A stretch of DNA of 57,071 nucleotides, filler included, from Squatina squatina (lineage: Eukaryota): assembly GCA_031763465.1 (NCBI GenBank). It is 3 parts of 3 records of this genome, joined end to end, with 100 filler letters (N's around TTAATTAATTAA, not from the genome) between each part and the next. Parts side by side here need not be neighbours in the genome. Positions count along the whole stretch, not along the records: positions 30,596 to 57,071 come from JARFOE010000046.1; 2 more parts are not named here. One strand, given 5' to 3'. Position 1 is the stretch's first letter; every line of letters begins with the position of its first letter. The notes below the pieces were generated by a model that saw only the letters and a program-made list of their open reading frames with translations, ran no database searches and was not told where the DNA came from. Made by a program: the position numbers and the translations under genes. Below are positions 30,798 to 57,070 of this stretch, one piece after another.

Positions 30798-30917
30798 AAG
30801 AGGTTTGCACACTGGTCATTACAGAAGCTTTTCCAGAAGATTCGGGGTTGTATAATTGTGTTGCTACCAACCGGAATGGCGCAACTTCATGCTGTGGCCA
30901 GCTCACTGTCTATTCAG
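30798..30917 (+). CDS. MYOT: Ig I-set half-domain exon of palladin/myopalladin type (EEVCTLVITEAFPEDSGLYNCVATNRNGATSCCGQLTVYS); probable upstream exon of a long myotilin
   Basis: tttattattatag|AAGAGGTTTGC...TATTCAG|gtacag. 120 nt, phase 1 to 1, no stops, D.G.Y.C Ig motif. Resembles palladin Ig2 EEICTLVIAETFPEDAGIFTCSARN. Assignment to MYOT is by strand and position only. Confidence 0.75.
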
Positions 30918-32221
30918 GTACAGTATGTACATCGCATCGAATGGCTGTAGCCCGAACTCAAAAATTAAACAAAAATGCATGCCAGCCACACTACAGTCGC
31001 TTGCACATGTAATGCCAAGGATTAAGATTAAGTTATTTTCTATAAGATTAATCCCATTTAAAGAGACTTACAAGAAGATTTGTAGCAACACTTTGGAACT
31101 ATTTCTGAACTCTTATTTCTTGCTTTTATGTTGTTTCTTTCCCATTTCCATTTATTTGATATGACTGTCATTTTTTGGTACATTCACAATATTTGGACAA
31201 TGAATTTCCCAATGAGAATTACTCAATAATCATGTTTTTGGAGAAAGTATAGGAGAATGGCAGAATGTCAGGCTGCACCAGAGGCAGACTGCGCCTAAAG
31301 GTTGATAACCTCCCAGCCACATTTAAAGGCAGAAGTGCAGTTTGGGAGTAGCCATGGCAGTAGCCATGCACAACTGGATGCACAGGTTCTGGATCAGCAG
31401 AAAGCCATCTGTTGTAAGAACACCTGCAGCTAATATAACACCATAAGGCTGTTATGGCAATCAGCTGCATCCTCAAGCCCTATTCCACTGCTGCTTTCCA
31501 GCCAACTTGCAATTCTGCCTTATGGAAAGTTTCCCAACTTGCTGTGACCTCACACTGCACTATCCTCACTTAACCAGCCATCAAATAGGAAGTCGGAATG
31601 TTATGCCCAATCAGCAGGCCACAGATTCAATTTTCTGCCCCCATATTTATTATGCCAGGCACTGGGTTTTGTCAGATATTTGATCTTTGGAAAGGCTGAT
31701 AACAATTTTATCTTCATATTTGACTACTTAATTTCACGTGGCTACATTCTCTTCATTTACTTTCATTTTAATTTATCCATCACCCCCAGTAAACATCACT
31801 TTGATGGTTGTTTACATCAGATTTCCCAATCCTCTCTAGTGAGCTTCCAAAAGTAGGCCCAATATGGGGCCCAACATGCCCACACTATGCAAATAAAAGT
31901 AAGCCCGCAAAATCACTTGGAGTGGCCGCACTAATGGGTGGGCTGCTGCTAATAACACATTACCCTGTGCAGTTATTATAAAAACAGTGGTCCTGATTAT
32001 ATCAATAAAATTGCTGCATATGTTTTAAACTTCTTAATCTACATGTGTTATTCCATCACAAAACATGTCAAAAATATGACTAAGCAATGTATTTAAGTGA
32101 AATCAATGAAATTGGAAATATTAGTTTCCAATTAATCCCCACTGGAAACTAATCTTTACATAACCTATTTTAGCTGGAAGACCAGAATAGACAAAAGCAA
32201 GACTTCTTTTCTTTTTTTCCA

Positions 32222-32608
32222 AGTGGCAGGCAGTGGGGTACCACAAGGTTCAGTGCTAGGACCCCAGCTATTCAAAATATATATCAATGAATTAGATGAG
32301 GGAATTAAATGTAATATCTTCAGGTTTGTGGATGTCACAAAGCTGGGTGGGAGTGTGAGCTGTGAGGAGGATGCAGAGAGGCACCAGTATGATTTGGACA
32401 GGTTGAGTGAGTGGGCAAATGCATGGGAGGTGCAGTATAATGTGGATAAACGTGAGGTTATCCATTTTGGTGGCAAAAACAGGAAGGCAGATTATTATCT
32501 AAACGGCGATAGATTAGGAAAGGGGGAGGCGCAACGAGAACTAGGTGTCCTTGTATATCAGTCGATGAAAGTAAGCATGCAGGTGCAGCAGGCGGTTAAG
32601 AAGGCAAA
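32222..32608 (+). mobile_element. CR1 LINE RT fragment
   Basis: SGVPQGSVLGPQLFKIYINELD...FVDVTKLGG...VIHFG. Confidence 0.95.
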
Positions 32609-32708
32609 NNNNNNNNNNNNNNNNNNNNNNNNNNNNNNNNNNNNNNNNNNNNNNNNNNNNNNNNNNNNNNNNNNNNNNNNNNNNNNNNNNNNNNNNNNNN
32701 NNNNNNNN

Positions 32709-34330
32709 TGTAGCGCCAGTATCTGAGCTGGTGCCTGCGGTTGAGAGAAGCAGTGACGCAGTGCTTGGCTCCTCATCGACCCCCTCTATTTCTCCCTCAT
32801 GACCCTGTTGAGGGGGTGGTGGTTCTCAGGGACAGGCTCACCATCTGCTGCATGGTTATCTGAGAGCATAAATGGCACAAGAGTCGCGTTAAGGCGAGGG
32901 CAGGTGGCAGGAATGGAGCAAGGGAAGCAGACAGTATGAAGAGCTGGAAATTGATAAGACCATCTGGTTTAATGGGCAAGTGGGATGAGAAGAGGGGATA
33001 AAGAGACCATTGTTGTCCCCAATGTGCTTGATGACTCCGCCGGCTACAGCGCCCACCACCTGCGGGCCAATGAGCCGCAGCACTCACTCCTCCAGGTCAC
33101 TCAGTTCATGCAGCTCAGCTTCCCCTGCTCCAGTCTGCTGCTGCTTCCTTCTGTGCCACCTTGACCTGCAAAAGAAAGAAAGTTGTGTGAGTAAGAGTCT
33201 AGCTATGTATGTGGAACATATGCCTGCTGCAGTTAAATAGCTGTGAATGTAGGCAAGGCGTGAAATGAGGATGTGACTGAGCAGGTGGTTGCCCATTGAG
33301 TTAAGTGAAAAAAACATTCCTTGAAAAAGAGGGAAGAATGGCTATTAGTCTGAAGATTCAGGTTGGCCACCTGCATGAAACGCCAGTGGGTCCCAGGGAA
33401 TGGCGACCCACGTTTCTGCCTCTCCCTTCTATTGTTTGTTTCCTTAACCTGCAATTACAAGACACAAATGAAATGCTGACTGTTTCCTGAAGCCTGTCGC
33501 AGCTAGGCAATTTGACACTGCTTCACTAACCAGCAGTGGAAGAACAGGCAACATGCAAGTGGGTATTCAAGGAGTCCTTAAAGGTCTTACCCATCAACAA
33601 AGAAATGGTTTCTGGAAGAGTGAGGTGTGTTAGGCAAGTATATGGGCTGCCTTGTGATCGAGAGAGCAAAAGCGTATGCAAAGATAAGAAAACATCCCAA
33701 TAAGTATGCAACTGTTTGAGAGGAGTTGGTGTTAAGTGGTGCAGGCAATGCAATTGCAAACCACTGTAGAGAGATAAGATTTACTTACCGTGGCAAACTT
33801 CTTGAAGGTGTTGAATTTTTTCCTCATCTGGGAGGATGATCACTTTACTGCAGAAACTTCATTTACTTGCTCAGCCACCTCTTCCCAGGTGTCCTCTGCA
33901 CAACTTGCTGAGGAATGTGCCCCTTATACCCAAAAATCGTACAGTCCTTGTCAGGACCGTCATTAACATCACCACCAGGGCTTTCTCACTAAAGGAAGCT
34001 GTCCTCTTTTCCCTTGGGGATTGTTAGACTTTTGTCTGATTCTGTGAAGACTTTCAGCAATACCACAGCAATGGAAGCTTTCCCCCAGAACTCAGAGTGC
34101 AAATATAGCTTTAAGGTGCTGCATTTGCACTTTTTAAGTTCCACAGGTATTTCTGACCCCTCCACCCTGTTCTCAATGTGGGATGCAAGCCGTGCTGGGC
34201 ATGCGCATGTCATATGTTAATGAGGCGTCCTTGGAAAACCCAAGAGGTTCCCTCTAGGTCCTGACAGCATGGAACATGCCTCACAAAGTGCCCCTACACT
34301 GGCAATGCCCCAGGAGTGGAATTCTTCCCC
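32709..34330 (-). mobile_element. Decayed Harbinger-type element with a spliced Myb/SANT-like gene
   Basis: Minus translation gives KRTASFSEKAL...WEEVAEQVNEVSAVK*SSSQMRKKFNTFKKFAT|gtaagt (about 33789-34020), then cttttgcag|...QQQTGAGEAELHELSDLEE*VLRLIG (about 33065-33165). In-frame stops are present. Element ends are approximate. Confidence 0.68.
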
Positions 34331-34677
34331 AAGTTGGCTGCGGTACAAATATGAAAATTGGCTTATTTGTTGAAAACAAATGATCAAGCATAACATTTCT
34401 TTCACAAAGTAGTTATGCATTTATCTGTATTAGAATGAATACTTTTACATTTTTTTCTTTAAAAATTCTTTTCCTTCTTCCGCCTAGTCAGCCAGTACAG
34501 CGGAATATCAAGCATCATTCTCCATCCAGTCTGCAAGACTTCCACTGTCACTAAAAGGGCAACAGACAAAAGCAGAATACTCTCCTTTTGGAGGCATACG
34601 TACCAGTTTCTGTCCAACTAATATCTCCTGATCAAACATCTCAGTCCAAGCGTGAGACAAGCCAAAAAACAACTGCT

Positions 34678-35180
34678 ATGAGTGTGGCCAACCTATCTTC
34701 ACAACCAACGCGTCAATCTTCAAGTTTCAACTATGAGCGGCCAAGTGATTTCATTCAATCACAGACTAAGTGCCAACCAAAGTTCCAGTCTCCAACATCT
34801 GGAGTGGCTACAGCTTCATTTCCTCAGCATTCCCCTGCATTGCAAACAAAAGCCTATAGTGTTCAGCAGTTGCCTAGCTCGTTCCAGCAATCACAGAACC
34901 AAAATTGCCAGCAAATGCCTGTATTATCATCAACATTAAGCTCTCCAATTTCTACTGCATCATCATTTGGCTCTAATATAGAGTCAACTCCAGCATCTCC
35001 ACCAACACCCCTTACTCTTCAATCTTCCCGTTGTCCTCAATCTTCTCTTTACACTTCCTCAAAGCATATGTCCTTTCCCTCTTTTACTGAGTCACCTGCA
35101 GCCTTTCTCAGTTCTGTGCTCCCATCCCAATTTGTTTCAGTTCCAAAAAATGAAATGCAGCTGCCTACCAAAGAAATTAA
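34678..35180 (+). CDS. MYOT: Myotilin, Ser/Pro/Gln-rich N-terminal exon (from the first in-frame ATG)
   Basis: MSVANLSSQPTRQSSSFNYERPSDFIQSQ...ESPAAFLSSVLPSQ matches human myotilin MFNYERPKHFIQSQ and QSPASFLSSILPSQ. Donor ATTAA|gtaagt, phase 2. A strong upstream acceptor is at 34487; the true 5' end of the exon is uncertain. Confidence 0.9.
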
Positions 35181-35394
35181 GTAAGTATGAAATTCCCCAA
35201 AATGATCAGTCTGGTAAGATGTAAATTCAGTTCAAAATTTGCATTCTAATCTAATGTTTCACAATTTCAATACATTTTTCCGTTGTACAGTCCACATGAA
35301 TGTGTGTGATGATATTCAAATACTCCATTATTGATAACAAATAAGAATTTATTTACCACTTAGTCATGGCTACTGAAATTTTCATTAGTTATAG

Positions 35395-35539
35395 ATATCC
35401 CAACAACTTTGGAAAGAAAACGGTCAGGTCACCAAAACCATCCAGTGATGAACAGATACAAGGCTCAAAAAATGCTGTCATTCAAGACCTGGAAAGAAAA
35501 CTGCGCTGTAAAAATGGGCTTCTGCACGATGGACAGCAG
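35395..35539 (+). CDS. MYOT: Myotilin exon (YPNNFGKKTVRSPKPSSDEQIQGSKNAVIQDLERKLRCKNGLLHDGQQ)
   Basis: ttatag|A TAT ... CAG|gtacag. 145 nt, phase 2 to 0, in frame with the previous exon. Matches human DHEIQGSKEALIQDLERKLKCKDTLLHNGNQ. Confidence 0.93.
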
Positions 35540-39555: not shown

Positions 39556-39710
39556 CTTGGCCAGTGAAACAAGTTACAAACACCAAGCCACTGAAGGTGC
39601 GGCCAACATTTAGCCGATACTCCGTGCTTAATGGTCAAGGGTTGTTGCTGGACCCAGGCACCCAATATACAGCATCATACCCCGGCCTAGTAGAAAGTGA
39701 TGAACTGTGA
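39556..39710 (+). CDS. MYOT: Myotilin terminal coding exon (WPVKQVTNTKPLKVRPTFSRYSVLNGQGLLLDPGTQYTASYPGLVESDEL*)
   Basis: ctcccaacag|CT TGG..., phase 1. Matches human KQLRVRPTFSKYLALNGKGL...GLYESEEL and ends in the E[ST][DE][DE]L PDZ-binding motif of the myotilin/palladin/FATZ group. The C-terminal Ig exons are not visible and presumably lie in gaps. Confidence 0.93.
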
Positions 39711-43651: not shown

Positions 43652-43876
43652 ATGGGAATACAATATTCCTAATACTGAGTTCGAGCTGTGGCACCGGGGT
43701 AGACTTGGTACATACAGCAATGGTGGTTACATTTTCGAGTTGGACAGAAATAAAGATACCAGTGCTGAGAAGATTAAACGGCTTAAATCAAAACTTTGGC
43801 TTGATAGTGGGAGTAGAGCTGTCTTAATAGACTTTACCGTCTACAATGCAAATGTTAACTTGTTTTGTGCCATCAG
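43652..43876 (+). CDS. PKD2L2: Polycystin-2-like 2 (TRPP5) extracellular polycystin/TOP-domain exon
   Basis: caacag|A TGG GAA TAC ... GCC ATC AG|gtttgt. 225 nt, phase 2 to 2. WEYNIPNTEFELWHRGRLGTYSNGGYIFELDRNKDTSAEKIKRLKSKLWLDSGSRAVLIDFTVYNANVNLFCAIR carries the PKD2-family motif IDF..YNANVNLFC. Its position between MYOT and FAM13B supports PKD2L2. Not in the ORF track. Confidence 0.92.
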
Positions 43877-45569
43877 GTTTGTGAAAACATTTTGAATATT
43901 TTAATTATGGTTCAAATCAAATTTCCACAGTTCAATGTACATTTACGTCACATTGAAATCCAACACTGTATATGTGCATCATTAAACTCACACATGTGCA
44001 ATTCATCTGTAGCCACTTTTTATTGTCCCATTGATGATTTTGTGGATATAGCACCAAATAAAGACAATTGTTTGCAAATCCCATTTAATTAATTAAATGT
44101 ACGCTTCATACATTTGTATGGTTCCAGTGAGATAGCAGTGTTTGAATTAGATATCTTGAAAACTGACTTTGCAAAACATTGTCAAAAATGTGGAATAAAA
44201 CCAGATCACTCCAATTATAAAAAGGTCATTGCTGGAATGGCGATAATGTGCTTGTCATCTAACCAAGAAAATCTTCAATGAAGATTTTATTTGCACTTTA
44301 TTCTGCTCCAAACTGTATTAGAGAAAATTCTGGTTATTTTGTAGAAGAATTTGAGGTCAGCATGTTGTGTTGTGACCAAAAGCAACAAGTTTATAGGATT
44401 TTCATTTCCATTGAGTGATTTGGCTTTATTCCCTAATTGCATTCCCTTTCCCTTTTTAAAATAATCATCGGATCAGCAAAAGCCCCTAATGTTCGATTAG
44501 TTGTAACTCTGATTCTCAACTTCCCCGTCAGTTGGCATTGTAGCCTTTTCACAGGGAACAACATCTTCAAATTTGGCATGGTTACAAAAAAATATGAAAT
44601 TTGTTACCAATGTAAACTATTGCCATCAAACATTTTCTTGAGACCCCTCCTTTTTGATTAATATAAAACTTGGGTCCAAAGCTGCAGTTTTATTGCTGCA
44701 AATATTTATCTGCTGCCAAATTTCAGAAAATGTCATGTTTGTAGATCTGTTGATCCTTTGTAAATTGAGGGACTTTCTTAGCATATGAAAAGTATGCCTC
44801 TAATTTCAATGGAAGTGGTGTAGTTTGATTTCATCTATCATTTTGGACACTCAGTTACGAACATCCTTGGGTCAGAGTTGTACCAAAAAATTGCTTGGTT
44901 AGAATTTCTGCAATCTGCTCTCCATCTCCAAGTAGCTGACTATTAACTTTAGGATTGGCAATCTTCCTGGTTGTGTTTCTTGTATCTCTTTTTGGAGATA
45001 GAGTTTGTGGAAGTTGTATGACAAAGATGATTTCCATTATTATTTATAGTATCCTCTTTCCCTTCTCATTTTGCTATCATGTATAATTTTGTTTCTCGTG
45101 TTATGTTTTGTTTTGCTTTGCTTTTTCATTAATTATCCCTTGCCTTATTTCTTTCCCACATTCTCTTTCTTGGCAGTGGGGAAATTGGGAAAATAAATTT
45201 CCAAATACTCAGCCAGTGATTTATTTCACTAACCAGAATTGCCAAGGAAGTATTTGGTTATCAAAATAAAATATTTATTCAAGGAATTGTAACAGAATTT
45301 TGAATACAAACCTAGAAAATAGGAGCAGGAGTAGGCTATTTGGCCCTTCGAGCCNNNNNNNNNNNNNNNNNNNNNNNNNNNNNNNNNNNNNNNNNNNNNN
45401 NNNNNNNNNNNNNNNNNNNNNNNNNNNNNNNNNNNNNNNNNNNNNNNNNNNNNNTACACCAATTTTAGGTGTTACACAAGGTTTGCTAATATGTGCTGTG
45501 TTTGAATGTACTGCTATGGTGAGAGTCTGTTATCCAATAAACTGTTAATTCATTCAAGTAAATACCAGA

Positions 45570-47588
45570 CTAATATGGGAAACACTTTATTAACATAAAT
45601 GACACAGCAAATATATTAGGAAAACTAATTGATATATTAAACTTCCAAAATAAATAATCTACATGTAACATGCACTGTGGTAAATCCTACAGTTCACCAT
45701 AACGTGAAACCACTTTCTTTAAAGTCCCAGGTTGGCAAAAATGATGGCACATTAAGGAGCTCTTGCCATGCAGTTAAGTTACATGAAATTTGTTTATACC
45801 AAGCAAAAAACTGCTTCAAACATCTAACACGCAATGTATTCCACAGTTCAAATTTATAATTTTATTGCTCTTATGATTGTTTTCTAAATTTTGAAGCAAT
45901 TTCAATATGTGGATCAAGCAAGTTATCACTATGTAAGAGTGAATAAGACTGGTTAAAAATTTGAACACATCAAAATATACAGATAAATACAGGTTTTTAA
46001 AAAAAGATTGAAACAGAAGTGTAGAAATGATACATCACTATAAAATGTACCACCATACAGCTATATATGCACACAAGAAAACACCTGAAAGTGCTGAGAC
46101 CATGCATTTATTAAAGTCTTCATACTGTAATGCAGTAATATTGTAACTTTCAACAATGAAGTGTCAACATACTACGGTGCCTAACAATTTTGCTGCATTG
46201 TTTTGTTACACAAAAAACACATCCCAATAATGTACAAAAATGTACACATTCTATCTCTTTCAATGCATATTTCTAATTAAGATGCACCACTGTACTCAAT
46301 TTTAACAAATCTCTGCTTTCAATACAGGGTCCTTGTGCTGTTTACATTCAAAGGTTTTGCAAGTACTACTTATTAAAACCATGCAAAATCAAAGGTTGCT
46401 GCTTAAATTACACATATACAGTAGGTGCATGCAATGATCTCAGTTACAAATAGTATTATAAAGCAACACCCATCTTATTTCATCAAATGACAAGGATACT
46501 CAAAAACAGTTTTCATATGGTTTCCAAAAGCGTTTCTTTAAAAAAAACACAAGATCACTGCATAATAAATCTAATACCTCATACTGCAATTGAGCAGTCT
46601 TCAGCAGTAAAAAGTGGCACAAGATAAGAAGTTATACTGAAAGCAGGTACTTTGCATTAAAACACATTCATAAATCAAACTCTGCCAAATCTTTCACTTA
46701 GCAGAAAAAAATCTCAAAATGTTTCACCTTTCGGACCTACACTTGCATCTTGCAAGGGCTTTTGTTGGCAGTTGGCCCTCTCAATTTCTGCCCTTATATG
46801 CTCAAGTCTCGGTGGGCTGATTGAACCCACATACATTCTAACACAGGAGCAAAGGTGCTGTCAAGAGAGCTAAGAAAACGAAAATGAAAAAGCAGCACAG
46901 AAACCCATATGCAAGATGCGCACACATTGTTGGCACAGAACAAAGTGTGTTTTTAAAATTTGAATTTTTTTTTCTAGCTTCTTAACTCAGCCATATAAAA
47001 AAGTCATGTTCAATAGAGAATCTGTTACTATCACTTGAATGGCAGCCAGAACAGAAATAGGAGGGCAGCAGGTGTTGATGACAACCATGTTTTCTCCTTC
47101 CCATGGTAGAACTGGAGTGGTTTTACCAAGAAGAAACTATGTTTAGAGCCACATTCCAATGCATGATAATGCATGAGGTTAAATCTCTGGCTCATATGGG
47201 GGTGAGAACCTTTTACATACTTTATATACTTTGGTGGAACTTCAAATGATTTATGACTTACCTACACAGCCCAGCAGAATTTGTTCTAATTTTTATTGTG
47301 CATAATTTTTTTTGTAAATTGGAGCAGTAACATCTAAAACTGGATGTAATAAGAACCTCTATCGCAGAATTTGTCCTTTAAATACTCCATGTGTATGTAN
47401 NNNNNNNNNNNNNNNNNNNNNNNNNNNNNNNNNNNNNNNNNNNNNNNNNNNNNNNNNNNNNNNNNNNNNNNNNNNNNNNNNNNNNNNNNNNNNNNNNNNT
47501 TACAAAAGAGGTAAGCACCAGCTCCAGAAGATAAAGTGTTCAACACATTGCTCATGATAATGATAGTACTGATCAACATCAAACCAAC
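45570..47588 (-). other. FAM13B: Probable FAM13B 3' UTR (long, AT-rich, largely repeat-free)
   Basis: Follows the stop at 47589. A minus-strand AATAAA reads TTTATT at about 45586-45591. The 3' end is inferred, and one gap lies inside. Confidence 0.5.
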
Positions 47589-47712
47589 TTAAATTGATTT
47601 TGCAGAATCTTGCTTGCTAATAAGAACTTCCAAAAGCCTGACTCTGGCTTTTATGCGTTTATATTCTCTGTAGTCTTCAATCATTGCCGCACGATCTTCT
47701 TTCTGTACATTC
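47589..47712 (-). CDS. FAM13B: FAM13B terminal coding exon ([40 protein letters not shown])
   Basis: ttctag|G AAT GTA ... ATT TAA. Matches the human FAM13B end [28 protein letters not shown]. Confidence 0.95.
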
Positions 47713-48289
47713 CTAGAACATTTAACCAAGTGAGATTCAATTGTAATTTGGGAAAAACTGTATGCCAATTTTAATTTCCAGTTCTAATTAATTAAGCTAA
47801 TATACATGTACAAAAAGTGAACTAGATTACAATTAAATTAGTGTAAGTTATAAAATCTGCATAATGAAAAACAAGTTTGTTCTGTATAAAAACTAAAAGG
47901 TATTATATCCATGTGACTAGTCTAAGTTTATACTGCAGTCAAGAGAGTTAACGCATGCTGCAAATTAATGTGCTAGATGGTCATTTAATATGGTAACCTA
48001 CATATGTTGGAGACCAATTGGACNNNNNNNNNNNNNNNNNNNNNNNNNNNNNNNNNNNNNNNNNNNNNNNNNNNNNNNNNNNNNNNNNNNNNNNNNNNNN
48101 NNNNNNNNNNNNNNNNNNNNNNNAAGCCCACCTCTTTGACCCAGCTTTGGGTCACATGCCCTAATGTCTCCTCCTTTAGCTGATTATACTGCTGTGAATT
48201 GCCTTGGGACGTTTTACTGCATTAAAGGCACTGTATAAATGCAAGTTATTGTTGTAATTTTATTACTTTGAGGGAAGCTTCACACTTAC

Positions 48290-48385
48290 AATAACTGGTG
48301 TTGCGTTTGCTTTGGCCAGCATCTGTTTCACAAGTCGGTATCTATCATATAAAGGCTTCACTAGCTGCTTCTCTTCCCTAGTAAC
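48290..48385 (-). CDS. FAM13B: FAM13B exon ([32 protein letters not shown])
   Basis: tttccag|GTTACT...GTTATT|gtaagt. 96 nt, phase 0 to 0. Carries the FAM13 motif [12 protein letters not shown]. Confidence 0.95.
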
Positions 48386-49185
48386 CTGGAAAATTAGATA
48401 GGCCTCATTAAATATTGAACAGTCAGCAGAACAGCAAACTGGTCAGTACATTAAAATATACTCTTACAGGATAATTAATGACAGGACTGTTCCCATAAAT
48501 GGCCTTACTGTCTCACAATATCTATATTAAACAAGCAGTCAATGCACTGAATATTCAATCATTGCACTAATTTTACTCAAAAATAATACAGAATGTTAAT
48601 TTTATTTATGCGTTATTTCATTGCTCCACACAACTTAATTGATTCCAGGGAATACAATCAACACTACGGTCTAATCCCAGGTTTCAGTTTNNNNNNNNNN
48701 NNNNNNNNNNNNNNNNNNNNNNNNNNNNNNNNNNNNNNNNNNNNNNNNNNNNNNNNNNNNNNNNNNNNNNNNNNNNNNNNNNNNNNNNNNGACACTGAGG
48801 CCAATTTCAGCACCCTATTGCCAGGGTGACCAGGATCTACAAACTCAGCCTTGATTGGGATCAGACCTGGCATGTTCCCAATTTGTATGGCTCAATTATT
48901 CATTACTTTTATAAGTTGAGCCATCAAGAAAGCAGAACTACTGGTTTCTATGTGTACAATCCACTGCTGCAATTGTTATATTAAAAGATGTAGATAATAG
49001 GCAGCTCACCAGTTTTCAAAGGGTTAAAAATTAGTTTTCTCTTAGCTTCCAATTCCCATGATTTTTTTTTTTTAAAAACAAGCCAAATCAATAAGATTTC
49101 CTTTCACATGCAACCTGAAGCTTTTATTCTTGATATTTCTAAATGCTGGTTGACTGAATGCAGATCGATGGCAAAGCATACTTAC

Positions 49186-49251
49186 CATCCCCATCTCTTT
49201 GAAGATGCATTGTTTTGAAATCAATGAAGGGAAAAGTGATTGTACATGGCG
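49186..49251 (-). CDS. FAM13B: FAM13B 66-nt symmetric exon (APCTITFPFIDFKTMHLQRDGD)
   Basis: ttctattag|CGCCATGT...GGGGATG|gtaagt, phase 1 to 1. Resembles human ASCPITFPLIDFKTMHLQRDGE as I recall it. Confidence 0.85.
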
Positions 49252-49654
49252 CTAATAGAATGAAAAAATGGCAAAAATACCAGTGTGAGCAGCAAGCAGT
49301 CACAGACACCCCATAAACACAAGTAAAACAGAAACACAATTAATACTAATTCACTACCCAAGACATAAACAGCATTTGCTTTTATGGTAAACATGTAGCA
49401 CAAATTAAAATATTGAAAAGAGCATAGCAGTTTTCTGGAGATCTAGATATGAAACTACATTAATACGATTCACTCAAGATGGATTCTGACTTGCATTTGT
49501 TCAGACAACATCTGTCCTCTGGCACAATGGGCCACATGAATGTAAAATGCTGCATTATTGGTAATTATTTTTCCCTGGTTGAAAGGCACAAGGCCCTCCA
49601 AAAATGTTTCCCAGTTTCTCCCCTGGAATTGCACCTTCTGCCAAAAAACTTTGA

Positions 49655-49903
49655 GTGCAGAGATCTCGGAGCATTGTAGGGCTAGAGGAGGTTACAGAGA
49701 TAGGGAAGGGCGAGGCCACAGGGGCATTTGAAAACAAGGATGACAATTTTAAAATTGAGATGCTGCTTAACCAGGAGCTAACATAGGTCAGCGAGCAACG
49801 GAGTGTTAGGTGAGCGGGACTTGGTACGCATTAGGATATGGGCAACAGATTTTTGGATGAGCTTAAATTTAGAGGGTGCAAGGTGAGGGGTTGGCCAGGA
49901 GAG
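49655..49903 (-). mobile_element. L2-clade LINE fragment
   Basis: Near-identical to 6885-6976 (gttacagagatagggaagggcgaggcca). Minus translation KLIQKSVAHILMRTKSRSPNTPLLADL is an L2 C-terminal motif. Confidence 0.8.
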
Positions 49904-50003
49904 NNNNNNNNNNNNNNNNNNNNNNNNNNNNNNNNNNNNNNNNNNNNNNNNNNNNNNNNNNNNNNNNNNNNNNNNNNNNNNNNNNNNNNNNNNNNNNNNN
50001 NNN

Positions 50004-50140
50004 ATCTTCCAGAATTCTATCGACTCTGGAACAGTTCCCACAGATTGGAGGGTAGTGAATGTAACCCCACTATTTAAAAAGGTGGTAGAGAGAAAGCAGG
50101 GTATTATAGACCGGTAAGCCTGACATCAGTAGTGAGGAAA
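50004..50140 (+). mobile_element. CR1 RT fragment
   Basis: SGTVPTDWRVVNVTPLFKKGGREKAGYYRPVSLTSVV reading. Confidence 0.85.
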
Positions 50141-51591
50141 ACCATACACGCTGAACATTTTGTTCCTATGTTCTAATCTGGCTGGATACCAATTCAAGAA
50201 TGTCACCAGATCAAAGGATTTCCAGTGATAACTTGGTAAAGCCATACTGCCAAATGCAAACCCCAAGTCTTCAAAGGTGTATAAAGATGCAATAAGCAGA
50301 CCATAAGACAAACCTTCATGTAACTTAGCTGCTGCATTACACATTTTTTTTTATTTTTTATAAAACACCCTTATTTTCCACTTGGATCATAAATTTAATT
50401 AAATGTTGCTTCACTTTATTAAAATAGCATGCTAAAACTCAATTCATTTCCTAGTCCAAGCAATGCCCACATTACCATGATTCAATTTAATCTAAAACGG
50501 ATAGTACTTTTAAATGAATAGTAATAAAGCAAAAAGCCCATTCTACGCTAAGAATACTTAGTCATAAGATATCTAATTTTCAACTGTATTCATTTTAAGA
50601 ATACACTTCTCTTCTGCCTCAACCAAGTTAGCCCTGTGCTCAGTTGGTCATAGCCCTCAACCACTGTTACAGAATGGACAAACTGTTCTCCTTTCTCATG
50701 CAGACGATGTACGTAGCTTAAAAAAAAAATCTTACTGGTAAACAGTTGGCAAGGCAACATAAATAGCATTGGTATCTTTAATAGTCCTATCAGAATAGCA
50801 CATTATAATTGCAATTCCCAGTAAAGTCCAAACTCAAGTATGCCTTTGCAGCTCAGCAAGTGAAATCAGATGTTTGAAATGGTGTCCAATGTCTGCACAA
50901 GCTAAAACTGAAATAAAAAACTTAAAAGTTATACATATTCAGAAATTACACAAGTGATTTCGTAAAGCCTACATTTTCTGTGTCAAATAAGCAGTTTTTT
51001 TTTAAACCCACATTAAGAGGACATTAAATCTTATGCTATAATAAAAGTTAATTCCTCAACCAAACTGAAGAATTTTGCTTCATTTTCTGTCTTTCAAAAT
51101 CAAGTATAAAATTCAATTATATTTCATTGATATTACCTATTACAGAGCTACTCCAATTGAAGGAAATTCATAACATAACCCAATTCCTGGTGCGAGAACC
51201 TTTAACCAGTTTATACTGCAGGTTGATGCAGCAACACATGTACAACTATTGTGTATACCTAAGAACACAAATTCTGGGTATGAACCATTGCATGTTAGAA
51301 CAAAGTTTACACAGGTCAGCAAAGTAGACATAGTAATTCTGGGCCTGTGCTCTCAGTCTGCCCATAGCCAGAATAAAATAACAGCCTTTCACCTTTGGTG
51401 TTAGCAGCACTTTGCCTCCAGAGACAGTAAATCACCTACGGTTGATCTTTGCCTCTGGAGACATATACATTGTTATATTGAGCTGCTGTTTCTGAAGGCA
51501 GGGTGTTGACAATATGAATAGGGTATTTAATGTGATCTCAAACTTCAGATCCTTTCTACTCATTTCATCAGATATATATTGTTTTACTTAC

Positions 51592-51745
51592 ATTTTCAAC
51601 ATCCTGGTGCAAGTGAGCTTCCAGTACTTCCAAGGTACAATTATGTAGTGAAAGCTGCTGCTCGTTGTCTGCATGCTGCAAAGTTTCTGAAAGGGCTGTT
51701 TTACTCACTTCAGTGTTGTGACTATTCTCTTCAGTGAGATCTCCT
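51592..51745 (-). CDS. FAM13B: FAM13B probable central-region exon (GDLTEENSHNTEVSKTALSETLQHADNEQQLSLHNCTLEVLEAHLHQDVEN)
   Basis: ttttctttctccaaattctag|A GGA ... GAA AAT|gtaagt. 154 nt, open, phase 2 to 0, between recognised FAM13B exons. Sequence itself not recognised. Confidence 0.7.
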
Positions 51746-52655
51746 CTAGAATTTGGAGAAAGAAAATCTGAGAAACTGCAATCCAGTTCAAAGAAAATAA
51801 TACACAAAANNNNNNNNNNCTGGGAATTTTTTTTTTTTTAAAATAAATATTAGGCACTCCATTTCTTTTCATACAAACTGTAGAATACCACTACAATGTT
51901 GGAGATCTTAATACATATTGCACCAGTGTAATGACTAAGATTAAAGTCATCTTTTCTAGGCACATTTTAATTTGATGTTCAATCCCCTTTCCTGCAAACA
52001 GCAAGAAGTGAGATCAAAGACGGAGAGTTGTATTATCAGGGTGAGAAAATGAAAGATAGCCAAGAATTCTGTTAGATTCCTAGACTGACTAACANNNNNN
52101 NNNNNNNNNNNNNNNNNNNNNNNNNNNNNNNNNNNNNNNNNNNNNNNNNNNNNNNNNNNNNNNNNNNNNNNNNNNNNNNNNNNNNNNNNNNNNNTAAAAA
52201 CAGCAGACGATGGCAGGCTGTTTAACCTTGTCCAGAACAGAGGACACAGTCTGTGCTTGAAGGGGGTAAATCCATGAAACAGGCACCCTAAGGAAATGGT
52301 GGAAGCAGAAAATGTTGATTCATTTAAATGCAAATTATAAATTTCTTTCAGAAAATAATATTTTAGGGAACAGTGTACGAGTAATGTGACACATGGAAAG
52401 TGTAGCATGTTTGGGAGGAACAGGTGACTTTGGACCTATAGTTCCCGAAGCTTTTCACCACTGGCGCGTTTTCCTCACCTCATGTCTTAGTCTAACAGTG
52501 ATTTGTCAACAATGCCATTATTGCTAGATGGTCTTTTTATTTAGCAATTCTTATGTTCCCAAATCCAAATTTAGCTGAAAACTTCACTTAACTTTTCTGT
52601 CCCCAGGAAACATGAAGTTTCATTTCAAGTAAATAAATTTAACAAATTGAGTTAC

Positions 52656-52794
52656 CTCAACACAAAACGAATTTGAAATATCTGTGGGCAGAAACTCTTC
52701 AGTACCAAAGAAATCACTGTAATTTTCCAGAAGTTCAGACATTATATTGCTAGCTGCTTCTTGTTCTTTCATATCTTCCACATCTGTGTAAATA
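52656..52794 (-). CDS. FAM13B: FAM13B exon at the end of the RhoGAP domain ([46 protein letters not shown])
   Basis: ttttgcag|T ATT TAC ... GAG|gtaact. 139 nt, phase 2 to 0. Matches human [29 protein letters not shown]. Confidence 0.93.
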
Positions 52795-53807
52795 CTGCAA
52801 AATAAATATTTGAAGTTTACTAAATCTTAAACCTGCTTTAACATTGTTGGGCACCTAGAGCACCAAAAGTTCCAGTTATATGTTCAGCAAATGCAATGCT
52901 GAACAGAGACATTTTCTTTTCCAGTAAATTGGTCAGAGTGTAAAACAGGCAGCCGATTTGTTTTCGCCCATTTTGCGATACCACCCAAGACAAATTTCAC
53001 CCCAATGTGCTTAATTTTTGGTTCTTCCGATTTTATAGTCATTCATTTTAGAATATTGGGCACACTAACCTGCACACCCAATTCTGCAGTCTGTGCTCCC
53101 ATTAAGTAAAACTCTGTGTCAGAAGCAGAATCACAAAAATGCTGTAGGTTTTCTACTATACTGTATTTTCACACCCAATTAAAAGATATTGAAGGGAGTT
53201 TTTGAAGCAGTAAAGCTGACTAAACGAAGTACGATTCTGAGTTCTTCAGTTGAAAGTAGATTATCTCATTTGCTGGCAGCTATTTTTGCATCAGCGTCTG
53301 ACCTAAACTATGGTGAGACTTCAGTAGACAAAGGACATCTTTCTCCTTTTACTTTCAGCATTTAATCATTTGGGATTTTTGTGCATAAGCCTGACAAGTT
53401 TCCAAGTTTGTGTGTGTGTATGTGTTTCTACAATAATACTCAAGTAATTTCTGGTAAAAGACAGAGCATAGAGAAAGAGAGTGACTGAGCATGGTACAGT
53501 GCCACAATAATTGACGTGTTACAGACCCTACATTACTTGATGTGTAATAAAGAAAACTTGTGTTTCTTGTCTGCTTCAAGTGTACCCATGTTATAACTGT
53601 GCATAATATTGTTACATTTTCTTTGTTCCTTCTTAAAAACTGTTTAGTAAAATTAATATTTCTGGAGTGATTCTGCATATCATGGCACTGTGTAAAAGGC
53701 TGCTATCTTCATGTTTCTGAAGTCTCTGAAAGTACAATTGTTATTATTTCTGATTTTAAAAACAAGTATGTATCATTATAACAATGACTGTAAAAGCTCG
53801 CAAAGAC

Positions 53808-54223
53808 TAGGCGGCCCCAGTTGGACTGGGCCGAAACCAGCCACAGCATTTGGGGCCCCTTCACCACGGGGACGTCACGCTAGCAGCGAGGCTCAGAGAA
53901 GCGGAATTGGTGACTTTGCCATGTTGCCGACTCAACCGCGCATGTGCAAGCCATGGCCCTGTCCTACAGGGAAAGGTAACAGGCTTGCATGAGGAATCGT
54001 GACCCAGGTCCCAACAGGAAAAGATGCCAGGGAGCATGCCGGCAAAGGGAGACACCAGCAGAGAGGGGAGATCGGATGACAATTAAGTCAGCCAGTGTTA
54101 AAAGATGGCGGCCGCCGGCACAGGGCCCGCACCTTTAATGCGCCTTGGCAACGACAGGGGAAACCTGTTGCCAATGTCTGTGGCGCTGCCGGCCTCCAAT
54201 TCTGGAGGCAGCTCAGCTGCGGC
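53808..54223. mobile_element. GC-rich interspersed repeat, 5' part; same family as 37672-38040
   Basis: Shared core at about 54100-54190. Begins GGCGGCCCCAGTT, an imperfect inverse of the AATTGGGGCCCC end of the other copy. Confidence 0.7.
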
Positions 54224-54490
54224 NNNNNNNNNNNNNNNNNNNNNNNNNNNNNNNNNNNNNNNNNNNNNNNNNNNNNNNNNNNNNNNNNNNNNNNNNNNNN
54301 NNNNNNNNNNNNNNNNNNNNNNNAGAAACCAGATTTGTGAAAGAATAGAGATGTTCAATAATTTGGATCAACTGGTAACTTAAGGATTAGAAAAAAAAAC
54401 TGGTATGACTTGCGTCTGTAGACCCTTACGCACGCAGAGTCAACTGATCAAAAAATGCAAGATAACATTGCTCTAACGCCAGAAACCTAC

Positions 54491-54655
54491 CTCTGAGCAC
54501 AGACACCCACTTAAAAAATAACTTATACACCAATCACCCTTAGTGAATAAGCATTTTTTAGCCAGCTATGGTTGCTTGAGATTGTGGCAGAAGATCAACC
54601 TGTAGTTCCTCATTGAAGAAACACAGAATTCGTCCAATCTTTCTTGGCAATTAAC
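54491..54655 (-). other. FAM13B: Probable FAM13B 5' leader exon containing uORFs
   Basis: ttttttcctctag|GTTAATTGCC...GCTCAGAG|gtaggt, 165 nt, upstream of the coding exons. Contains ATG-initiated ORFs at 54613-54566 (MRNYRLIFCHNLKQP*) and 54554-54540 (MLIH*). Confidence 0.7.
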
Positions 54656-55939
54656 CTAGAGGAAAAAACAATGTTTTTAATATACATTGCAAAATAACAT
54701 TGTATCAAAGATATTGGCAATAAAAAAAAAGCATGTAATCAAAGGTCCCTTTTTTTTTAAATAAAAAGGCATTTTATCCCTTCTCTCGTTTCCCCATGTC
54801 ATGCCAAGTTGAAAGGACAAGCCGGCCACTAAGCTTCAAGACCTTTGCCAATGGCACTCTAAAATTAACCATTAAATGAGAAAACTCATTTGAGGCAATG
54901 CCCCATTCAATTTTACCTTCACTGTGAGAAAGTGCTTTGTTCCACAGTGCCTCCCTCAAAGCACAGCTGAGACCATGAGAAGGTTTTGAATTGGTTTATT
55001 TAACCTATCGGTACTAATAAGTGATAATGAATCTTAATAAACCGATCCATTTTAATGTTGTTCCAATGTCCTTCTTGCGTTATGCTCTTAACTCATCACC
55101 TCAAATTGACCACTACTAGTGAAAGGCTGAGAGTATCAGTACATTAATGCTAGAGCAAAATGCTCTCTCACCCAAGTTTGGAAGGATGGAATCTATAAAC
55201 TATACTGTTCTTCTTTTCCCACCCCAAGACATAAACAGCTCAAGTTGACACAAAGAAAACTTCACACACTAATTATGATTCACTGATTATCTTAATGAAA
55301 ATGCCGATTAATTCATGCTGGATTTTGGACACATCTTACTACCAGTGAACTGGACTCGCCGAGTAAAGAATTTTCAGCACAAGGTTCAGATATGGCTTTA
55401 GCTCACCAATACATTTTAGTCCAACTATTGCTATTATCAAAGGCTAAGGATGCATCTTCACGTTCCGTATAAAAGAGCAACACAAGAAAATTACTCTTTA
55501 AATCTCCCTGTTTAAGTCCCAAAATATTGAGGCAGTCATTTCAAATTCAATAATTTTGGCCAATAGATAAATGCTTCATGATTTGTAAATTTTGGGGAAA
55601 GGAGGCAAGAAAGAGCTTTACAATACTGTAGACATACAGAAGTCATGCTACAGAATATTAGAAGTTCCTATCCAGAACATGTGGTCAGCTTATCTAGCAG
55701 AAGAACATAAGAATTGGAGCAGGAGCAGGCCATACNNNNNNNNNNNNNNNNNNNNNNNNNNNNNNNNNNNNNNNNNNNNNNNNNNNNNNNNNNNNNNNNN
55801 NNNNNNNNNNNNNNNNNNNNNNNNNNNNNNNNNNNACACTATTTCACTTGCGCCCTGAATCCTGAGAAATGGCTCCTCCAAATCTGCGCTTTGCATCAGT
55901 TTTCTGTTGATAGCCAGTTTCAGGAACACTGCAATGCCA

Positions 55940-56890: not shown

Positions 56891-57070
<180 letters not shown>

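Follow-up and report, generated by a model that had tools for sequence, protein, structure and literature searches.

A palladin Ig2-type exon upstream of myotilin in the shark Squatina squatina, and the probable three-Ig myotilin to which it belongs

Myotilin (MYOT) is described with two immunoglobulin (Ig) domains (PMC5479843, PMC8002584) and as being expressed in a single isoform (PMC10069870), as far as the available portions of these sources extend. In the human protein, according to the accessible text of PMC8062120 and PMC5479843, F-actin and PDZ proteins attach to the C-terminal Ig pair and tail, and an alpha-actinin motif occupies residues 95-106. Palladin (PALLD) isoforms include a 140-kDa form with four Ig domains, from a separate transcript, and a 90-kDa form with three (excerpts of PMC10069870 and PMC4148246). 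The sole evolutionary study of myotilin lists a 521-aa chimaera sequence in its supplement (PMC5479843), and the one text file of that supplement available to us contained no match to the motif of the exon described here. Titles and abstract openings outside the subscription literature yielded no paper on a three-Ig myotilin, and the accessible parts of PMC7333403, PMC10017460 and PMC11367936 held nothing on one. A 110-kDa myotilin band was considered as a candidate long form and dropped, no paper on the point being found by title or abstract opening.

Here we characterize an Ig half-domain exon in a window of 57,071 nucleotides from Squatina squatina (GCA_031763465.1). Positions 30596-57071 of this window correspond to scaffold C46 (JARFOE010000046.1) from position 3927681 onward; the scaffold is built of short contigs with many N gaps, one of 7725 Ns lying just before this point. 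The window's first two parts were not found within 150 kb upstream on C46 and were left out of the analysis. We conclude, with high probability overall, that the exon supplies the latter half of one additional Ig domain at the N-terminus of myotilin (N-Ig), corresponding to palladin Ig2, and that this domain is likely made as part of a three-Ig myotilin with an upstream start, a form from which, in sharks and rays, the alpha-actinin-binding exon is mostly skipped. The features of the locus are as follows.

30798-30917 (+): focal exon, encoding strands E, F and G of long myotilin's N-terminal I-set Ig domain, with CysF and the G-strand CC pair
32136-32608 (+): high-copy intronic repeat with a reverse-transcriptase-like frame, outside the gene; at least 40 other matches at 84-90% in the genome
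32609-32708 (no strand): 100-N scaffold gap, the sole gap between the focal exon and the FNYERP exon
34488-35180 (+): FNYERP cassette exon, 693 nt, phase 2-2, with FNYERP and the alpha-actinin-type motif SPAAFLSSVLP
35389-35539 (+): exon common to both forms, 151 nt, phase 2-0, with the DEQIQGSKNAVIQDLERKL motif
39556-39710 (+): last MYOT coding exon, ending ESDEL-stop

The focal exon comprises 120 nt in phase 1-1, with an open frame and AG/GT borders (ttattatag/AAGAGG upstream, TATTCAG/gtacag downstream). Its peptide, EVCTLVITEAFPEDSGLYNCVATNRNGATSCCGQLTVYS, has four Cys in 40 residues, CC pair included, just as the first-pass annotation had read it, and aligns to Pfam I-set over positions 56-90 of 90 (E 4.2e-07), exceeding the curated cut-off. 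That annotation had placed the exon 3.7 kb upstream of the FNYERP exon with one gap between; the single 100-N gap stands, and the distance measures 3.57 kb to the acceptor at 34488 and ~3.8 kb to the FNYERP motif. Judged by identity over the 40-residue query to the annotated myotilins of Pristiophorus and Amblyraja, this is not a chance frame. In an AlphaFold2 model from an alignment of 32 exon-skipping rows, residues 61-161 are folded at pLDDT ~90, the final three strands deriving from the focal exon, and the linkers are disordered. Foldseek with the whole model gave generic multi-Ig matches only (top, titin I67-I69, TMq 0.21), and palladin-family Ig2 was absent from the best 60 of 105 matches in a PDB sequence search.

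To which member of the family the exon belongs was assessed from a protein search that retrieved 185 matches. Among the best 120 of these, the 14 chondrichthyan rows named myotilin, from 12 species, comprised 13 elasmobranch entries at 93-100% identity and Callorhinchus at 83%; myotilins of coelacanth, lungfish, gar, bowfin, bichir, paddlefish, newt, reptile, bird and guinea pig reached 59-73%, and amphibian palladins 55-60%. Callorhinchus palladin matched at 58%. Over the focal exon's 38 residues alone, mammalian MYOT gave 19-23, no better than PALLD at 20-23. The nearest other copy in the genome, on contig C189 at 59% identity, is that of myopalladin (MYPN), an exon of 117 nt in phase 1-1 that begins at the same codon; it is thus not identical to the focal exon, a possibility that the first-pass annotation had raised. 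The exon split of the Ig domain is the same in MYOT and MYPN, the first halves ending at one place, and three separate first-half exons occur in the genome, one each for MYOT, a PALLD-like and a MYPN-like gene. C234 and some small contigs carry PALLD-like exons; the second-half exon of S. squatina PALLD Ig2 was sought in the assembly and not found. On sequence comparison, then, the focal exon belongs to MYOT rather than to PALLD or MYPN, as first proposed, and the separate N-Ig clade reported below (100/99) agrees.

It could be argued that reference-guided scaffolding set a paralogue's 2-kb contig beside MYOT, making this a misplaced PALLD or MYPN exon. The contig does sit between a 7725-N gap before it and a 100-N gap after it, and the missing PALLD counterpart would suit such a history. 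Yet in two elasmobranchs the annotated myotilin is 100% identical to the exon's peptide, against 58% for Callorhinchus palladin, the MYPN exon is accounted for on C189 and the PALLD exons on C234, and contigs of related organisms splice the focal exon to MYOT exons. The misplacement reading is largely refuted, and we regard it as extremely improbable.

Several parts of the MYOT gene are dispersed over the assembly. Upstream, scaffold C46 also carries exon 2 (C46:3919725). The first half of the N-Ig domain, carrying CysB, is a 142-nt, phase 0-1 exon on C911347, and a linker exon of 265 nt, phase 1-2, occupies the unplaced contig C454087 (1773-2037) and likely belongs in the 32609-32708 gap. Further downstream exons are on C645504, C642746 and C991485. 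Four MYOT exons reside on unplaced contigs, and the order of the scaffold across its N gaps is provisional; by their phases the recovered exons join in frame, whether or not a 24-nt microexon of relatives is included. That microexon (exact degenerate pattern) and MYOT exon 1 (protein query; local tblastn) were not found in this fragmented assembly, where such misses are no evidence of absence. A direct splice from the focal exon to 34488 was ruled out as out of frame; the linker exon lies between. At 35389-35397 (+) two AG acceptors stand 6 nt apart, and annotated shark isoforms differ at this place by two residues (ELYRYP vs ELYP), consistent with alternative use of the two.

The surroundings hold several further elements. 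The repeat at 32136-32608 is presumably a LINE fragment. At C46:3917336-3918466 (+), 1.3 kb upstream of MYOT exon 2, is an intact single-exon, 377-aa rhodopsin-family receptor (7tm_1), which we take to be NPY Y6-like (NPY6R); the interval between them yielded no MYOT exon 1, so that intron 1 of MYOT may enclose the receptor, although a 100-N gap intervenes. Downstream, one polycystin-like exon (43653-43877, +) converges with several FAM13-like exons (46740-55470, -), all seen as translations; most exons of the polycystin-like gene are apparently missing in gaps, and we assume the two genes to be PKD2L2 and FAM13B. An exon at 56919-57018 (+), adjoining the 5' end of the FAM13-like gene, encodes a peptide of what we presume to be the beta-thymosin family, with an unusual-looking Cys-containing N-terminus, and is followed by a GT donor. 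Some 130 kb upstream, at C46:3789271-3789801 (-), is a channel exon that we take to be TRPC-like.

Splicing was followed in assembled contigs, all of them from related organisms, in runs presumed to be of RNA. In three of four runs (X2, X3 and X4; two organisms, three studies) the counterpart of position 30917 is joined to that of 35389 over GT..AG, with 262 letters between, and the X3 contig, 1792 nt, continues from the focal exon through to the last MYOT exon (39556-39710), including the C-terminal Ig pair and an ESxEL-type tail; run X1 covers the focal exon with no joint listed. Among four further runs, two of them from one study (X8 and X13) join the end of the linker exon to 35389, and contigs of X9 and X11 read through introns in a DNA-like manner. 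Since these contigs join 30917 to 35389, the Ig form is spliced to MYOT with the 693-nt, phase 2-2 FNYERP exon skipped. The prediction that the focal exon is spliced to MYOT exons downstream is thereby borne out in related organisms, in three of the four runs; the companion idea, that the Ig form extends the FNYERP protein, is not supported for elasmobranchs, in which the FNYERP exon is mostly skipped.

Contigs containing FNYERP occur in X1, X2, X4 and X13. The FNYERP contig of X4 carries its own 123 letters upstream, and the Ig contig passes it unbranched, which suggests a separate first exon for the FNYERP form. FNYERP was absent from 12 of the 14 chondrichthyan rows and stood together with the Ig module in the other two (2 of 12 species). 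Contig depth, a poor measure, was for the skip form versus the FNYERP form 21 vs 4 in X3, 43 vs 50 in X4, 27 vs 91 in X2 and 11 vs 951 in X13; in X3 and X8 the Ig form predominates or stands alone among the forms assembled. These differences between runs are at most a weak hint of tissue-dependent use. In sharks and rays, most of the Ig form is likely produced separately, without the alpha-actinin-binding exon. Two positions within the FNYERP exon bear on this arrangement.

34552-34554 (+): TAA, in frame, within the 5' part of this exon; read as CAA in X1 and X4, with Gln at the site in Pristiophorus
34678-34680 (+): first in-frame ATG past the TAA (MSVANLSS...), aligning with the Met before FNY in palladin

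The TAA may equally be an assembly error or an allele. Because it lies upstream of the ATG at 34678-34680, from its alignment the likely start of the short, classic myotilin, a real TAA would stop an Ig-plus-FNYERP protein and leave the short form unharmed, so that only two exclusive forms would be possible in S. squatina. Exclusivity is not general: Pristiophorus (850 aa), Callorhinchus (780 aa) and 12 of 17 bony-vertebrate proteins combine Ig and FNYERP in one model. These combined models, the CAA of relatives at the TAA site, and an X1 FNYERP contig whose mere 29 upstream letters are compatible with a branch all accommodate a simpler account, in which the long form is a plain N-terminal extension (Ig and FNYERP exon in one protein), the TAA an assembly error, and skipping a minor or tissue-sampling effect. 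Against it stand the unbranched skip in three of the four runs and the missing FNYERP in 12 of 14 chondrichthyan rows, and we hold it somewhat unlikely; a mostly separate Ig form in elasmobranchs is preferred.

The origin of the module was examined by phylogeny, with 66 Ig domains of 16 proteins aligned over 97 columns. From chimaera to guinea pig, the N-Ig domains of MYOT fall into a single clade (100/99) within an Ig2 clade (98/91); they group with Ig2 of PALLD and MYPN and not with Ig1, 3, 4 or 5, and the other two MYOT domains group with Ig4 and Ig5. The initial alignment of the focal peptide to the second half of Ig2 is therefore upheld by the phylogeny with PALLD and MYPN. The supposed plurality of N-terminal Ig domains is not: all 29 long myotilins picked from the search matches have three Ig domains in total, one of them N-terminal, and Ig1 and Ig3 were absent from all 29; an Ig1-like exon was likewise not found in the 150 kb upstream, 48% of it N. 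A family-motif search gave 97 matches, 17 of them named and most others short fragments, including five-Ig proteins of sea lamprey and hagfish; among its full-length members no invertebrate homolog was recognised. In a tree of 25 proteins (Ig2, Ig4 and Ig5; 296 columns) rooted on the hagfish and lamprey five-Ig proteins, MYOT, on a long stem, is sister to PALLD (100/98), PALLD is monophyletic (88/90), and a PALLD-MYPN clade without MYOT is rejected (p-AU 0.004). With a five-Ig cyclostome root and MYOT sister to PALLD, parsimony favours a five-Ig ancestor, in keeping with the palladin-like ancestor first suggested, and MYOT likely lost Ig1 and Ig3 and kept Ig2. The module might instead have been copied later from palladin, or three Ig domains might be ancestral, with Ig1 and Ig3 gained in PALLD and MYPN. 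Long MYOT branches could indeed be misplaced, which would leave room for either history; the single MYOT N-Ig clade from chimaera to guinea pig, the five Ig domains of hagfish and lamprey, and the rejected PALLD-MYPN clade make both very unlikely.

The start Met of long MYOT aligns with palladin MPQAQKKTTSVSLTI, between Ig1 and Ig2. Coelacanth palladin isoform X2, with four Ig domains, starts 8 residues ahead of the MPQAQKKTTSVSLTI-aligned Met, another coelacanth palladin model, of 670 aa, starts before FNY, and the two match palladin's 140-kDa type and its 90-kDa type. We presume that the 140-kDa form starts at the MPQAQKKTTSVSLTI Met, a placement to which the coelacanth model alone lends support. 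Under the history we favour, a five-Ig ancestor of the hagfish and lamprey kind would have duplicated, and the MYOT copy would have dropped Ig1 and Ig3 while retaining two nested palladin starts: (i) one before Ig2, of the 140-kDa type, and (ii) one before FNY, of the 90-kDa type, giving classic myotilin. The NPY-receptor-like neighbour, considered with the paralogon of such receptors, would fit an origin by genome duplication, given the chromosomes to which we assign the MYOT-family genes. NPY receptor regions constitute a paralogon on human chromosomes 4, 5, 8 and 10 in the available part of PMC2453138, which does not name MYOT-family genes.

Annotated models place long myotilins in lineages from chimaera to teleosts, birds and placentals. 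Among the best 120 of 310 matches to a guinea-pig N-terminus query, long myotilin with open frames occurred in at least 11 placental species of four major lineages, and primates, mouse and rat were not represented among these 120; from cluster look-ups, cattle, buffalo and bighorn sheep join the carriers of long myotilin or the module. The mammalian long models are automated, and many list the module as a separate 'palladin-like' gene; the same module is annotated alone as mammalian 'palladin-like' proteins of 135-241 aa. Together with bird 'PALLD/MYPN partial' entries (~232 aa), these entries match the upstream module of MYOT. From that match, the bird and mammal entries labelled 'palladin-like', 'PALLD partial' or 'MYPN partial' look like mislabelled MYOT 5' exons. 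The N-terminal Ig was absent from both of two frog myotilin models and present in newt and caecilian models; loss in frogs is possible. A short myotilin of 544 aa is annotated in a shark, Mustelus; with the short form present in sharks too, both forms are old. Retention of the long form, which the first-pass annotation had assigned to this lineage, is therefore not peculiar to it, the module being annotated across jawed vertebrates. Nor is mammalian myotilin in general the surviving short isoform, many mammals having long models and sharks already a short one; for human and mouse that idea may still hold.

Conservation of the N-Ig domain differs among groups. Compared with sawshark, 10 other elasmobranchs show 87-96% identity over N-Ig and 80-95% over the C-terminal Igs, and 17 bony vertebrates 53-64% over N-Ig and 52-60% and 47-57% over the C-terminal Igs; compared with guinea pig, five other placentals show 77-86% over N-Ig and 89-95% over the C-terminal Igs. 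This faster divergence among placentals suggests relaxed constraint in mammals. It may be asked whether the module is a transcribed but functionally minor or decaying relic of palladin, real in fishes and near-separate or fading in mammals. The placental divergence, the stand-alone 135-241 aa 'palladin-like' models, the two frog models without the module and an X13 skip form at contig depth ~11 vs 951 (a poor measure) could all be read so. Myot knockout mice are also without overt phenotype in the accessible text of PMC8002584. Elasmobranch N-Ig is, however, conserved like the C-terminal Igs, frames are open in at least 11 placental species of four major lineages, and the Ig form is the main or sole assembled form in X3 and X8. 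Decay of this kind is improbable in our judgement, and a conserved module remains our preferred reading.

The cysteines of the domain have their own distribution. By alignment and predicted strands, the B, F and G strands of shark N-Ig all contain Cys; in the CC pair, the leading Cys lies 11 residues past CysF and aligns with a G-strand Cys of titin 3b43. This CysG occurs in both of the two cyclostome proteins compared, in 3 of 5 palladins and in 7 of 7 fish myotilins, and in none of 5 tetrapod myotilins or 2 myopalladins; its occurrence in cyclostomes, palladins and fish myotilins marks it as ancestral and no shark novelty.

We suggest a mechanism in which choice of start and one symmetric cassette exon would exchange N-terminal modules on a constant C-terminal unit that binds actin and PDZ proteins. 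SPAAFLSSVLP in the exon at 34488-35180 is the putative counterpart of the human alpha-actinin motif, and its place in a skippable exon means that choice of start and exon would swap the alpha-actinin anchor for the Ig module. The short form would dock on alpha-actinin at the Z-disc; the Ig form, without that motif, would use its Ig as a protein-binding module and place the actin-binding end elsewhere. This last, functional step is tentative, its chances in our view a little short of even, and it is a guess insofar as the literature searched names no partner for Ig2 alone. A bolder reading holds that myotilin is two proteins: the textbook Z-disc form, and an ancient three-Ig form in which a palladin-Ig2 module (with a redox-sensitive, titin-type Cys triad in fishes) would replace the alpha-actinin and myopathy-hotspot exon, acting outside the Z-disc or skeletal muscle, still made in many mammals, its exons unrecognised or recently lost in primates and mice. 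Taken as a whole, we think this reading unlikely, if worth stating.

What we describe is, then, a conserved, spliced module of a known gene, present in automated annotations (RefSeq/UniRef) from shark to pig and apparently undescribed in the literature searched. It fixes the direction of change in this family, from five Ig domains to three, suggests that myotilin keeps palladin's nested-start design, and would reassign to MYOT 5' exons many bird and mammal entries now labelled 'palladin-like', 'PALLD partial' or 'MYPN partial'. It also raises the question whether knockouts and patient screens miss a myotilin form.

Of known systems, classic myotilin (498 aa, two Ig domains, N-terminal alpha-actinin motif; available text of PMC5479843, PMC8062120 and PMC8002584) is the product of the same gene and has the same C-terminal Ig pair and tail; the long form differs by an added N-terminal Ig module, and the exon with the alpha-actinin motif and most human myopathy variants is skippable in sharks. 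In titin I-band Ig domains, the accessible part of PMC5766482 describes a CysB-CysF-CysG triad and its G-strand position; shark N-Ig appears to share these triad positions, whereas force bearing and the disulfide are features of titin, the triad of myotilin N-Ig being a predicted one. Palladin forms that skip the homologous FNY exon resemble the MYOT skip form, and their authors suggest a different localisation (nucleus); those forms are demonstrated by antibodies only, and for palladin. The Ig1-Ig2 region of myopalladin and palladin binds CARP/Ankrd1 and FHOD1 (PMC10069870, in part), and MYOT has a counterpart of its Ig2; since those baits held Ig1, Ig2 and the N-terminus and myotilin has Ig2 only, the binding is not transferable. 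The 140-kDa palladin shares with long MYOT, by alignment, an equivalent start Met before Ig2, and in addition an N-terminal Ig, a low-complexity region, the QDLERKL/RLTYEE motif, Ig4-Ig5 and an ESxEL-type tail. Long MYOT differs from it in lacking Ig3, in its short linker, in having three rather than four Ig domains and, in elasmobranchs, usually in lacking the FNY/alpha-actinin exon.
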